Below, piece by piece: positions 39,001 through 42,000 of a stretch of 64,000 nt of DNA. The stretch comes from an uncultured Nitrososphaerota archaeon (lineage in GTDB: Archaea; Thermoproteota; Nitrososphaeria; Nitrososphaerales; CADDZS01): positions 128,001-192,000 of the forward strand of contig CAWCYI010000004.1 of NCBI GenBank assembly GCA_963799845.1, given 5' to 3'. A program made the position numbers. How positions within the stretch are numbered: position 1 is the first letter of the stretch; each line of letters starts with the position of its first letter.

Positions 39001-42000
39001 TTCAAAAAAATACACTCGGGCGCTGATTCGAGACGTTTTGACACAGTGCTGTCTCTTGGATATCAACGGGCTGGATCACGGAGAGCTCAGCAATCCTACG
39101 AAGCATGTGCTGATCTGGGGTAGTGAAAAACCAAAGACTACTCTAATCGATTACGAGTCTGCGAGCCGAAACAGAAAAATCTCGAACGTCACAGCCGTGG
39201 CTCAATTCTTTTTTCTCGGCGGGTGGCAGAGCACAAAGATCAGAAAAATACTCGGAATGGAAAAAGGCTTTTCCAAAGAAGAATACATTAGAAAACTCCG
39301 ACAGTACAAAGCAATACCTACGATGGAATCTTTGGAAGAATTGCTTTCATTTGTCCACTGTTAAACAAAGCATTAAAACCGCAAGTCAGATTTGGAGTTT
39401 GTTATTCCTGGGTTCGGGGTCGTCGTCCAGCTTGGTTTAGGATCTCTCTAGAGCTAAATTACCACCCTGGGGAGCTGGCAAGTTTACTTGCCGGTAACAC
39501 GGAACGGTGGCGAGGCACTTTCACCGTGCTCCACAAATCGCCGGTTCAAATCCGGCCGACCCCACCATTTTTACGCTGCATACATAGACCCCCTTTTTTT
39601 CGCCAAAAGTAATAGCAGGAATGGGTGGTTGTGGAAGTTTGTGCCAACGCCCTAAATCGGGCTAAATTAGTGCTAAAGAGGCGCAGGCGAGCTTTTTTCC
39701 TTTTTGTGAAAAGAAGCGAAATCGACCTTTCGGGGGTGATGGAGGGAGGGTTGAGACTTTTTCCTTTTTGAGAATCAATAGAAATTGCATCTGGTGTCGA
39801 AAATTGGTCCTGATTGATGTTGGCGCCGGCCGTTTCTCCATTTGATGTCGTTCAGCTTTTGCATGAAACAAACATGTTTATTGCTAATTGCAAGGATTGG
39901 GGAAACAATCTGGATTGAAGATGGCTCTAAGCAAACAGCTGACGGAATATCTGCCACTTTGGTCCGAAAGCCCTGGCCGCGGTGGGGAGTCAGAGGATCC
40001 ACTCGGTTTTCAGCGGCAATCCGAATATTGGGCGAACAAGTTCCTCCCAGGATTGACCGTGCTCACGATTACTCCTCGTTACTACTCTTTCATTTGTTGG
40101 TGCACTGATATAATTACCAGGGAATTTGCGGATTCCAATCAATATCGAGGAGAGATAACATGGCAGGAGTTTCAAGAATCCTTTAATCGATTTGAGCGAC
40201 TGCTAGCTGATATCCGAAGCGGCGTTTCACTCGGATGAAAAACCGATAAAATGCGGCTTCATAGGGAAACGCAGGGCCCCAAGAATTTACAAAAAGATGC
40301 GAGGGTACGGAACTCTAGATTTTTCGATTTTAGATCAGCAAGACAATACCGGCTCTCTCGCCAGATACAAGACCTCGCTGATTGATTTGAACCTATTTCG
40401 GCCCGATCAAATTGGTCTTACCGATAAGGGGGCGGAACTCGCTAAGGCATTTGAAGCCCAAATCGGTCAAGCCAAAACTCGATCTATTCATTATTGCATA
40501 GAGAAAAGAAATGTGAAAAAAACTCAGTTGTGGCATATTGGTTCGAAGTTTTGCTTGTCTCAGATCTCTAATGCAGAATGTAGAGAGATCGCAAACGCAT
40601 TATTTGGAAGAAGATACGACCGCGAGGAGGCGAGGGCCAGGAGATCGACTCTTCTCGCTTTAGACAAAGACGAAGATAGCGAATACAGTTTGTTATCTCA
40701 CTGCTATTCGCGACCTCGCAAAAGTGACATTGGAAACGATCTCGGGAACGTTCAGTTTATGCAGTTCTTCTTCATCGCTTCACTTACGATTTTTAACTGC
40801 CTATTGTTGTATAAAGAGCCTAACAGTACTTTCAAGATTTCCGGCTTCGTACAAGATTTTCTCGCGCATTCTTCATTTCCTGTCGAAGAAAATCTGAAAG
40901 ATCTCATCCCGACAATCAAAGGTAAAGAAATTAGGATTTCAGGGAAGATAGCAAAATGTAATGGAAAAAAGTACCCTGAATTGTATCAAGGACTAGATCT
41001 TGCAACTAACTTAGCTCTCTTAATTGCAGGGAGGAAAAGGGAAGGCCTTTCGAAACTTGAAAATAAAAATCTAATCTGCTATAGTTTTGTAAAATTCTCG
41101 TATTTGGTATCCAGCAACCTGAGTAACGGTCTGAGAGAATTCATGCAAGCGCTAATAATAGATCTCGTCAATTGGCACATTCTTGTGTTTGACTCTAAAC
41201 AGACTCAACCGTGGATAGAGTTTGGCGATCCCGATAGATCTATTCTCGTAACTAGGTTCCAAAAAGATGAGACCTTTTTTCTTAATCTAAATCCATACAG
41301 TGTAAGAATTAATGCGGCTTTGAGCCTACTTGGAGGGTTGGGTAGGTATGCAAAGTAGTAGAATTATTCTCGACTCTTTGTTTGATTTTGAAGATAATCT
41401 CCAAAACGTATTGTTTCTAACTTTTACATTTGATATTCCCTTTTTCGAAACAAAAGTGCTTCCAAAGCTCGTTGAACGAGGGAAACCGAAGATCTCGGTA
41501 ATTATGGACTATGTTCAGCACACCAAATTGATTCAACAGTCGGTCCGAACGACTCCCATCTACAATATTGACCGGTGCGCAGGTCCTAATATTCTCCACG
41601 CGAAGATATTCATTCTAGGTGGAGCGGAAAAGCTTCGCGTAGTGGTCGGATCTTGCAATCTCACAAAGAATGGATTTGAGAGAAATGCCGAACTTTTCAA
41701 AACCATTGATATAGACAAGGATTCATCCGATTCTAGCTTTGCTGACTCTGTCTCGCAATTTTTGTTTGAAGTGGTGCGAAATAGAATCGGACGGATATCC
41801 AAGAGGAATATTGACGAAATCTTGATGAAACTTTCTTCGCAAAAGACCCAAGAGAATACCTCTCCAATTTTCATTATGAATTCCTATCATACGTCAGTCA
41901 TGGATCAGATTATCAAGAGAGTGGAAAAAAAGGATGTCCGATATATTCAGGTTCTGAGTCCATTCTTTGAATCAGAGGAATATGATGAAGGAATTTTCTC

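Follow-up and report, generated by a model that had tools for sequence, protein, structure and literature searches.

Archaeal tRNA genes interrupted by several introns are of a kind known from Thermoproteales, other Thaumarchaeota, and Asgard archaea. Thermoproteales such as Pyrobaculum, Thermofilum, and Caldivirga carry up to three bulge-helix-bulge (BHB) introns per gene, often at non-canonical positions, and possess a heterotetrameric EndA; passages of the tRNAscan-SE 2.0 paper give 71 introns in 46 tRNA genes for Pyrobaculum calidifontis and an average of 0.84 per gene for Thermoproteales, and also describe a dedicated thaumarchaeal intron model, the thaumarchaeal genomes covered there containing 107 non-canonical introns (PMC8450103). 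Thaumarchaeota are assigned an alpha2beta2 EndA in a review (PMC4090602), and non-canonical introns are known from the ammonia-oxidizing Nitrosopumilus, Cenarchaeum, and Nitrososphaera. For Asgard archaea, the respective study describes nearly all tRNA genes as interrupted, many of them missed by standard annotation, with insertions mostly in the D arm, at splicing motifs, and without copying between genes being found.

The Nitrososphaerota genome analyzed here shares these traits, the heterotetrameric EndA being a prediction in our case. Its load of c. 66 introns in 40 tRNA genes is comparable to the value for P. calidifontis, but its host belongs to a different class, Nitrososphaeria, and the records sharing the exon sequence of our main locus are soil or environmental genomes, one with an optimal growth temperature predicted at 33 °C (PMC10640624, Table 1). 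The Asgard archaea belong to another phylum and show a higher load (2.2 introns per gene). Compared to the ammonia oxidizers of its own order, the load is much higher here, as judged by RF00005 matches at E ≤ 0.001, a proxy dependent on genome completeness (58–96% in this family), which number 5–23 per genome in the family (13 genomes) versus 18–43 in other families of the order (28 genomes). Such a load seems to be unreported for this UBA141-like family of Nitrososphaerales: the word "intron" does not occur in the main text of the Gagatemarchaeaceae paper, "tRNA" occurs once in two of its supplementary files (in type-material criteria), and the Asgard study text contains neither "Thaumarchaeota" nor any word beginning with "Nitrososphaer".

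A tRNA-Pro(GGG) gene with three introns

Within the window, i.e., the whole analyzed stretch of 64,000 nt, the locus at 39416–39563 measured 148 nt instead of the c. 76 nt expected, displaying a 7-nt acceptor strand at its 5' end and an intact T arm plus the complementary acceptor strand at its 3' end. The best solution of our solver resolved 39416–39564 on the plus strand into four exons and three introns (Table 1), and removal of the introns restored a cloverleaf, identified as Pro(ggg) by ARAGORN. Judging from the sequence, the locus is very probably a functional tRNA-Pro(GGG) gene split by three archaeal BHB introns, as the survey had proposed. Its four exons are colinear within 148 nt, and no sign of a split or permuted tRNA gene was found.

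Given the cleavage register within the bulges that we take to be usual for the motif, intron 1 forms a full hBHBh' structure with an outer helix of 4 bp, a 3-nt bulge, a central helix of 4 bp, a second 3-nt bulge, and an inner helix of 3 bp. Intron 2 pairs three of four central positions (one G.A), its outer helix of 5 bp being the anticodon stem, and intron 3 is of the relaxed HBh' type with four of four central pairs, an inner helix of 5 bp, and a weak outer helix of 1 bp in its genomic context. Minimum free energy folding of the whole precursor largely recovered the motif of intron 1 and paired the region of intron 3 otherwise. Shuffling of the interior (n = 60) resulted in a top score of 10.8 versus 21.6 for the real sequence. 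The five-T run behind the encoded CCA likely represents an archaeal terminator; a T run lies behind the gene in relatives, too.

Partial 3' copies were detected on C4 and C6 (Table 1), truncated copies of tRNA-Pro and tRNA-His exist in the genome, and an integrated element may lie next to tRNA-Pro; no integrase family was found among nine ORFs scanned near this gene.

Table 1. Features of the tRNA genes and associated loci (window positions; contig positions where a contig name is given).
Feature	Position	Strand	Remarks
tRNA-Cys(GCA)	13091..13231	+	two introns
Cys-GCA intron	13127-13172	+	46 nt; 37/38
Cys-GCA intron	13183-13206	+	24 nt; variable loop
tRNA-Ser(TGA)	18716..18898	-	three introns; spliced product read by ARAGORN as Ser(tga)
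Ser-TGA intron	18849-18890	-	42 nt; 8/9
Ser-TGA intron	18794-18826	-	33 nt; 29/30
Ser-TGA intron	18765-18785	-	21 nt; 37/38
Pro-GGG exon 1	39416..39442	+	acceptor 5' strand, 8-9, D stem 5' strand, D loop, D stem 22-24; identical in five relatives
Pro-GGG intron 1	39443..39459	+	17 nt; 24/25 (D stem 3' strand); BHB counts (4,4,3)
Pro-GGG exon 2	39460..39472	+	positions 25-37: 25, 26, anticodon stem 5' strand, loop to G37; anticodon GGG
Pro-GGG intron 2	39473..39504	+	32 nt; canonical 37/38; BHB counts (3,5,1)
Pro-GGG exon 3	39505..39512	+	8 nt; position 38, anticodon stem 3' strand, 44-45
Pro-GGG intron 3	39513..39536	+	24 nt; 45/46 in variable loop; BHB counts (4,1,5)
Pro-GGG exon 4	39537..39564	+	46-48, T arm, acceptor 3' strand, discriminator A73
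Encoded CCA (39565-39567), then five-T run (39568-39572)	39565..39572	+	read directly from sequence
tRNA-Arg(CCT)	C6:390630-390770		three introns; sixth such gene
tRNA-Met(CAT)	C6:1422307-1422534		three introns
tRNA-Ser(GGA)	C7:180521-180740		three introns
tRNA-Leu(CAA)	C8:7801-7956		three introns
tRNA-Gln(CTG)	C8:78364-78439		uninterrupted
Gene closest to Gly-CCC	C7:113855-113946
RtcB gene	C1:50921-52240		E 1e-172
Partial 3' copy	C4:247240-247277
Partial 3' copy	C6:1113952-1113980

Other tRNA genes of the window

Two further interrupted tRNA genes were identified in the window. In tRNA-Ser(TGA), the 5' acceptor is present twice, 28 nt apart, so that an alternative start at 18870 would leave a first intron of 14 nt; a parse by hand with four insertions was dropped, the three-intron solution of the solver having a normal serine D arm. 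The gene for tRNA-Cys(GCA), with a T discriminator as is presumably usual for tRNA-Cys, was the sole tRNA above the Rfam cut-off in the window and was miscalled as Leu(cag) by ARAGORN with introns allowed. A separate ARAGORN search of the window found no gene.

Intron load of the genome

Altogether, 40 tRNA loci were rebuilt, all of them as colinear genes with no split or permuted arrangement, and 39 were found to be interrupted by c. 66 introns (c. 1.65 per gene). The survey's finding that nearly every tRNA gene is split is thus upheld, its totals of 38 genes, 37 of them split, and 61 introns differing slightly; its 18 single-intron genes remained, double ones rose from 14 to 15 and triple ones from five to six by addition of Arg-CCT, and the solver also recovered the triples already reported (Ser-TGA, Met-CAT, Ser-GGA, and Leu-CAA). 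Most introns occupy non-canonical positions, again in agreement with the survey (40 versus 26 canonical), with a hot spot at 30/31 (seven introns) and numerous others in the D loop. Insertion lengths ranged from 16 to 88 nt, and the previously noted 58-nt insertion of Glu-TTC was located after the T-loop. The gene on C7 that the survey had left as either Gly-CCC or Trp-CCA is closest to the compact Gly-CCC of the complete same-order genome G037. Two loci on which a solver requiring U33 fails carry C33 and could be solved as Gly-TCC and Arg-TCT; these may or may not be the two tRNA-like genes left unsolved before. About eight anticodons were not found in this 86.7% complete genome.

Some solutions are firmer than others. 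A first, permissive solver version solved 143 of 176 anchors, with chance anchors scoring 16–17.7 with three long introns, and was replaced by stricter scoring; since random anchors reached 17.7, weak solutions such as Gln-TTG (14.9), Leu-CAA (15.2), and Ile-GAT are less sure. Ile-GAT, which has a 3-nt connector, and Glu-CTC were placed by hand. Several intron borders in the D loop are not fixed by structure, with alternatives within 0.4–1 score units, and the counts for AlaGGC and ArgTCG are conservative, as each D-loop insertion of 57–65 nt could represent two introns.

Standard finders see only a fraction of these genes, as already noted in the survey. ARAGORN without introns called nine, including genes of 92–97 nt that absorb a short intron, and RF00005 revealed 12 over cut-off among 33 at E ≤ 10. 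With introns allowed, ARAGORN made 29 calls, but misassigned many genes (e.g., Cys as Leu-cag, Thr-GGT as Val-gac, and Gly-GCC as Glu-ttc) and was therefore used only to check spliced products.

Controls on the intron reading

In 39 of 40 loci, an intact acceptor and an intact T arm enclose a span of at least 90 nt. Alignment without any motif to the compact tRNAs of G037, where 37 of 43 tRNA matches read without an intron, revealed that 39 of 40 loci contain an insertion of 17 nt or more, with 64 blocks of at least 8 nt in total, a comparison used only for insertion presence and a rough count because alignment to a distant reference merges neighboring introns and splits some. The enrichment of BHB motifs reported by the survey holds where the cloverleaf alone fixes the intron: among 25 genes with one anticodon-arm intron, 16 leave only one or two positions, and these had at least three of four central pairs in 16/16 cases versus 37/317 (11.7%) at other positions. 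As most solutions were filtered for at least three of four central pairs, genome-wide motif counts are circular, this test excepted. Interior shuffles of six genes reached the real scores in 0 of 360 cases.

An improbable alternative is that the insertions exist and are excised, though in part not by EndA at BHB motifs, or that introns were over-split, e.g., Pro-GGG having only two. A two-intron solution for Pro-GGG (39443–39459 and 39480–39536) scored 18.5 versus 21.0, alignment to the distant reference merges introns 2 and 3, and 27 of 61 solver introns show a relaxed central helix (three of four pairs). The orthologue in G007, a relative from another genus, rules out the two-intron solution: it harbors intron 1 only and otherwise equals the splice product predicted here, with the 8-nt exon 3 in place in the absence of introns 2 and 3, which establishes three separate introns in our genome. 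Against removal by another route, insertions of 16–88 nt are too short for self-splicing introns, and an Rfam search of the window at the gathering score resulted in one tRNA only and thus in no group I or group II intron.

Splicing enzymes

Removal by EndA at BHB motifs, as preferred here, is consistent with the enzymes encoded. Two PF01974 genes account for the two EndA paralogues listed in the survey. The 186-aa product is colinear with the crenarchaeal EndA chains 3p1z_B and 2cv8_A (E 1e-37) and contains Y, H, and K of the triad, whose residues we take to be those of the M. jannaschii enzyme, while the 232-aa paralogue has an A at the H position in the BLASTP alignment. One subunit with Tyr-His-Lys and one without His is the pair of paralogues expected for an (alpha-beta)2 EndA. 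The enzyme would presumably be a crenarchaeal-type heterotetramer in which a catalytic subunit is combined with a structural one, a form able to cope with relaxed motifs and with introns outside the canonical position. A gene for RtcB was identified as well.

In the proposed pathway, the Pro-GGG gene would be transcribed as a single precursor of c. 150 nt, each exon-intron pair of which would fold into two 3-nt bulges around a 4-bp helix, completely for intron 1 and in relaxed form for introns 2 and 3. EndA would then cleave in both bulges, and RtcB would ligate the exons to a tRNA of 76 nt. The order of intron removal is one that we infer, as is the direction of evolutionary change (gain, not loss).

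Conservation in related genomes

The Pro-GGG exons were identical at 76/76 positions in G001, G002, G004, and G006 (same genus) and in G007, while the introns differed in sequence and length (17–30, 26–43, and 21–24 nt for introns 1, 2, and 3, respectively), which bears out the survey on both points, including the relative lacking two introns. Identical exons between diverging introns indicate purifying selection on the exons. Intron 1 was found in 6/6 genomes, with four of four central pairs in all six, intron 3 showed the same in 5/5, and the inner helices were maintained through two-sided changes among orthologues. With respect to number, Pro-GGG carries no intron in a compact genome of the order, one in the sister genus, and three in this genus; Ser-GGA carries one in G037, two in G007 and G010, and three here, the series of one to three that had been described before.

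These comparisons also bear on the view that the interrupted loci represent pseudogenes in decay or relics riddled with insertions, with the working tRNAs encoded in the unassembled 13%, which we regard as very unlikely. Though the incompleteness of the genome, the missing anticodons, and the truncated tRNA-Pro and tRNA-His copies would fit, this would make relics of 39 of 40 loci, five other genomes conserve the Pro-GGG exons despite diverged introns, insertions are located where the splicing motif forms in the cloverleaf-only test, and neither ARAGORN nor RF00005 revealed intact intron-free duplicates of these isoacceptors in this genome. That the insertions arose through errors of assembly or binning in a single metagenome-assembled genome can be practically dismissed and is refuted for the architecture, which is found again in genomes assembled independently (Pro-GGG in five, Ser-GGA in eight, Met-CAT in three) and in five named public records, although the anticodon loop of Gln-CTG, 1 nt longer than in G006, could be due to a homopolymer error, so that small assembly errors are possible.

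Evolution and implications

Functional genes split by BHB introns would thus account for 39 of the 40 loci, and the heavy load appears to be a trait of the whole family that was presumably built up stepwise, by gain rather than loss. Comparison of the introns with each other (n = 61) resulted in only one weak pair (E 0.04), i.e., no sign of copying between genes. Related introns at different sites were reportedly described for Thermoproteales by Fujishima in 2010; in contrast, introns of different genes lack sequence similarity here, apart from that one pair among 61.

On balance, we see an even chance that the UBA141-like family represents a third independent hot spot of tRNA introns, in addition to those of Thermoproteales and some Asgard classes, in soil archaea that do not oxidize ammonia. 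Gains would then be traceable between living genera (from zero via one to three in Pro-GGG, from one via two to three in Ser-GGA), the introns, which share no sequence, would not have spread by copying, and C33 would be fixed in two tRNAs with U34. The latter hints at a wider relaxation or remodeling of tRNA processing.

These results leave the accepted view of the function of such introns as it is. For genome annotation, routine tools show 9–12 tRNA genes here, several with a wrong anticodon, and since quality standards for metagenome-assembled genomes usually require 18 tRNAs or more, genomes of this kind would be marked down for a biological reason. The 40 non-canonical sites lend themselves as a panel of substrates on which to study how specific the thaumarchaeal alpha/beta endonuclease is. 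If the family is indeed a third hot spot, it would provide a young and densely sampled system for the origin of archaeal tRNA introns. The order holds the compact G037, intermediate genera, and this family with nearly all tRNA genes interrupted, so that intron gains can be placed in time on a tree.

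A proline tRNA gene split by three introns

The locus at window positions 39416-39563 opens with a 7-nt acceptor strand and closes with an intact T arm and the strand complementary to that acceptor; A73, a CCA encoded in the DNA, and a run of five T come next. With 148 nt, it spans about twice the length of a tRNA. ARAGORN found no gene across the window and missed this locus, as did Rfam, whose sole match over cut-off within the window was a tRNA at 13091-13231. Our solver takes an acceptor/T-arm anchor, admits candidate introns with at least 3/4 central pairs of the bulge-helix-bulge (BHB) motif, and rates each product by its D arm, anticodon arm, and variable region. 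Its best solution comprised three introns, and the product spliced in silico was identified as tRNA-Pro(ggg) by ARAGORN. The motif is complete at intron 1 (two 3-nt bulges flanking a 4-bp helix, with outer and inner helices of 4 and 3 bp), while intron 2 shows 3/4 central pairs stacked on the anticodon stem and intron 3 all four, with an inner helix of 5 bp and an outer helix that is weak. Folding the precursor at MFE (-60.9 kcal/mol, z -3.41) gave both the acceptor arm and the T arm and most of the intron 1 motif; the intron 3 motif was absent.

The strongest support for the predicted intron structure is motif-independent and comes from orthologous loci aligned to the predicted mature sequence. 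As the survey's finding had stated for five genomes, the exons are identical (76/76 bases) in G001, G002, G004, and G006 of the same genus and in G007 of another genus of the family, and the introns vary in sequence and length (17-30, 26-43, and 21-24 nt for introns 1-3). G007 carries intron 1 only, the rest being exactly the predicted splice product, which rules out a two-intron alternative ranked fourth by the solver. In G037, a complete genome from another family of the order, the gene is uninterrupted. Ser-GGA was also found with one (G037), two (G007, G010), or three introns (G002, G003, G004, G006, G008, G011), as the survey had noted, and three introns interrupt Met-CAT in G001, G004, and G006, with 73-74/75 identical exon bases and intron lengths of 16 to 94 nt. 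Leaving out G001, an unpublished genome, keeps these conclusions unchanged.

Features of the Pro-GGG locus, its neighbourhood, and other tRNA loci (window positions unless a contig, C4 to C8, is named)
Feature	Position	Strand	Remarks
Pro-GGG intron 1	39443-39459	+	17 nt, between 24/25
Pro-GGG intron 2	39473-39504	+	32 nt, 37/38
Pro-GGG intron 3	39513-39536	+	24 nt, 45/46
LigT-like 2H phosphoesterase	36391-37134	+	
CCA-adding enzyme	37239-38537	+	
289-aa ORF	38495-39364		no Pfam family match
ORF	40297-41358		no Pfam family match
PLD-family nuclease	41330-43276		overlaps helicase
SNF2-type helicase	43248-45506		
beta-CASP/metallo-beta-lactamase RNase	45576-46943		opposite strand to nuclease and helicase
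tRNA-Arg(CCT)	C6:390630-390770		three introns
tRNA-Gly(TCC)	C4:110275-110399	+	outside window; loop CCTCCAA
tRNA-Arg(TCT)	C7:116983-117084	-	outside window; loop CCTCTAA
Gln-like tRNA	C8:78364-78439	+	76 nt, A1-U72
tRNA-Ser(TGA), duplicated 5' end	18863-18898	-	copies 28 nt apart
tRNA-Ile(GAT)	C4:3439-3566	+	two introns
Truncated 3' copy	C4:247240-247277	+	
Truncated 3' copy	C6:1113952-1113980	-	
Truncated 3' copy	C6:1259729-1259793	-	

Intron load of the tRNA gene set

The earlier finder counts were reproduced, with 9 genes from ARAGORN run without introns and 12 RF00005 matches over cut-off. A scan for T arms that were intact and accompanied by a completely paired acceptor gave 947 anchors, which composition and span filters reduced to 69 and then 39 credible tRNA loci, 38 of them spanning 90-229 nt and one 76 nt. 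Glu-TTC, whose 58-nt insertion lies right after the T loop, in agreement with the T-loop intron described by the survey, was added as the fortieth. Most placements came from a revised solver, and Ile-GAT and Glu-CTC were curated by hand. Altogether, 39/40 loci are interrupted by about 66 introns (one in 18 genes, two in 15, three in six), and none needed four. These totals differ slightly from the 38 genes and 61 introns proposed before; the five genes listed with three introns (Pro-GGG, Ser-TGA, Met-CAT, Ser-GGA, Leu-CAA) stand and are joined by Arg-CCT.

The 61 solver-placed introns are 16-88 nt long; 24 lie at the canonical position 37/38, 13 in the D loop, and 12 in the 5' strand of the anticodon stem (seven at 30/31), with the remainder spread between 8/9 and the variable loop. 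Five hand-placed introns, counted apart, are canonical (two) or in the D loop (two) and T loop (one). No sequence was shared between introns of different genes.

An earlier, looser solver version had returned solutions even for chance anchors, so less certainty attaches to D-loop intron borders and to the low-scoring solutions for Gln-TTG, Leu-CAA, and Ile-GAT. Interior shuffles of six genes (60 each) scored at most 12.3 and never reached the real scores (19.7-21.6). In a motif-free control, each locus was aligned to compact tRNAs of the 1.7-Mb genome G037, which has 43 tRNA genes (loci L038-L080), 37 of them uninterrupted and read without intron; this revealed insertions of at least 17 nt in 39/40 loci and 64 blocks of at least 8 nt, some of them merged or split. 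In a further control, the cloverleaf alone picked among 16 possible positions in 25 genes with a single anticodon-arm intron. Where one or two positions were left, 16/16 genes showed at least 3/4 central pairs there, compared with 37/317 at other positions; in the nine genes with 5-10 loop ties, 37/38 gave the best motif eight times and 32/33 once. The analysis confirms that Pro-GGG is split threefold and nearly all tRNA genes are interrupted, and supports their reading as multiple archaeal BHB introns, whose splicing is predicted from sequence.

Splicing enzymes

Two PF01974 genes (186 aa and 232 aa) match the two EndA paralogues reported previously. The alignment of the 186-aa protein with the crenarchaeal EndA chains 3p1z_B and 2cv8_A runs from end to end (E ~1e-37). 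This protein has a Tyr, His, and Lys, which we take to be the catalytic triad, and its N-terminal loop region contains a conserved Lys-Pro-Arg. Its 232-aa paralogue is more distant; its matches to beta-subunit models fell below their cut-offs, and Ala stands at the position aligned to His. A gene for the ligase RtcB was also found. A review (PMC4090602) describes alpha2beta2 enzymes in Thaumarchaeota, as in Crenarchaeota and Nanoarchaeota, and a richness of Thaumarchaeota in unusual introns.

Unusual tRNAs and neighbouring genes

At tRNA position 33, U is near-universal. Gly(TCC) and Arg(TCT) have C33, conserved in 8 and 7 relatives, respectively, over three genera of the family, while G037 has T33 in both; C33 may be tolerated, modified, or edited. 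The sole uninterrupted gene, Gln-like, has an anticodon loop of 8 nt, one T more than in its G006 orthologue (92% identical), whose Gln-CTG loop is normal; the extra T reflects either an assembly error in a homopolymer or a genuine +1 variant. In Ser(TGA), the 8-nt 5' end (acceptor strand and T8) is duplicated within the first intron, so that two starts are possible. Once its introns are removed, the acceptor and D stems of Ile(GAT) seem to be joined by three bases (TCA) instead of two, and alignment to G037 places a 1-nt insertion at position 9.

Three truncated tRNA 3' copies resemble attachment sites duplicated long ago by integrated elements. Two are Pro-GGG-like with the last bases of intron 3, and one is His-like, keeping a 19-nt intron and missing the 5' acceptor; the copy on C4 shares the orientation of the Pro gene and is found 80 kb downstream of it. 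Upstream of tRNA-Pro, within about 900 nt and with the 289-aa ORF in between, lie two genes for RNA-end enzymes (36391-38537). The PLD-family nuclease and SNF2-type helicase form a defence-like pair, next to which follows the RNase.

Comparison with known cases

The 27-nt 5' exon of Pro-GGG recurs in five named public records of a Nitrososphaerales or Thaumarchaeota archaeon. In the Gagatemarchaeaceae paper (PMC10640624, Table 1 and Supplementary Data 1), the isolate behind one of them is placed in family UBA141 and labelled a 'heterotrophic terrestrial' thaumarchaeon; introns are unmentioned in the main text of that paper, and our literature search found no report of tRNA introns in the family. 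According to PMC8450103, Pyrobaculum calidifontis has up to three introns per gene (71 in 46 genes), Thermoproteales average 0.84 introns per gene, and tRNAscan-SE 2.0 includes a thaumarchaeal intron model; a 2026 preprint gives 2.2 per gene for some Asgard families. Multi-intron tRNA genes are already well known as a kind, and the genome under study is a newly found, heavily loaded case. RF00005 matches number 5-23 per genome in its family (13 genomes) and 18-43 in other sampled families (28 genomes), which, as a rough proxy, suggests that the load is family-wide. Within the order, G037 is useful as a compact reference for calling introns without the motif.
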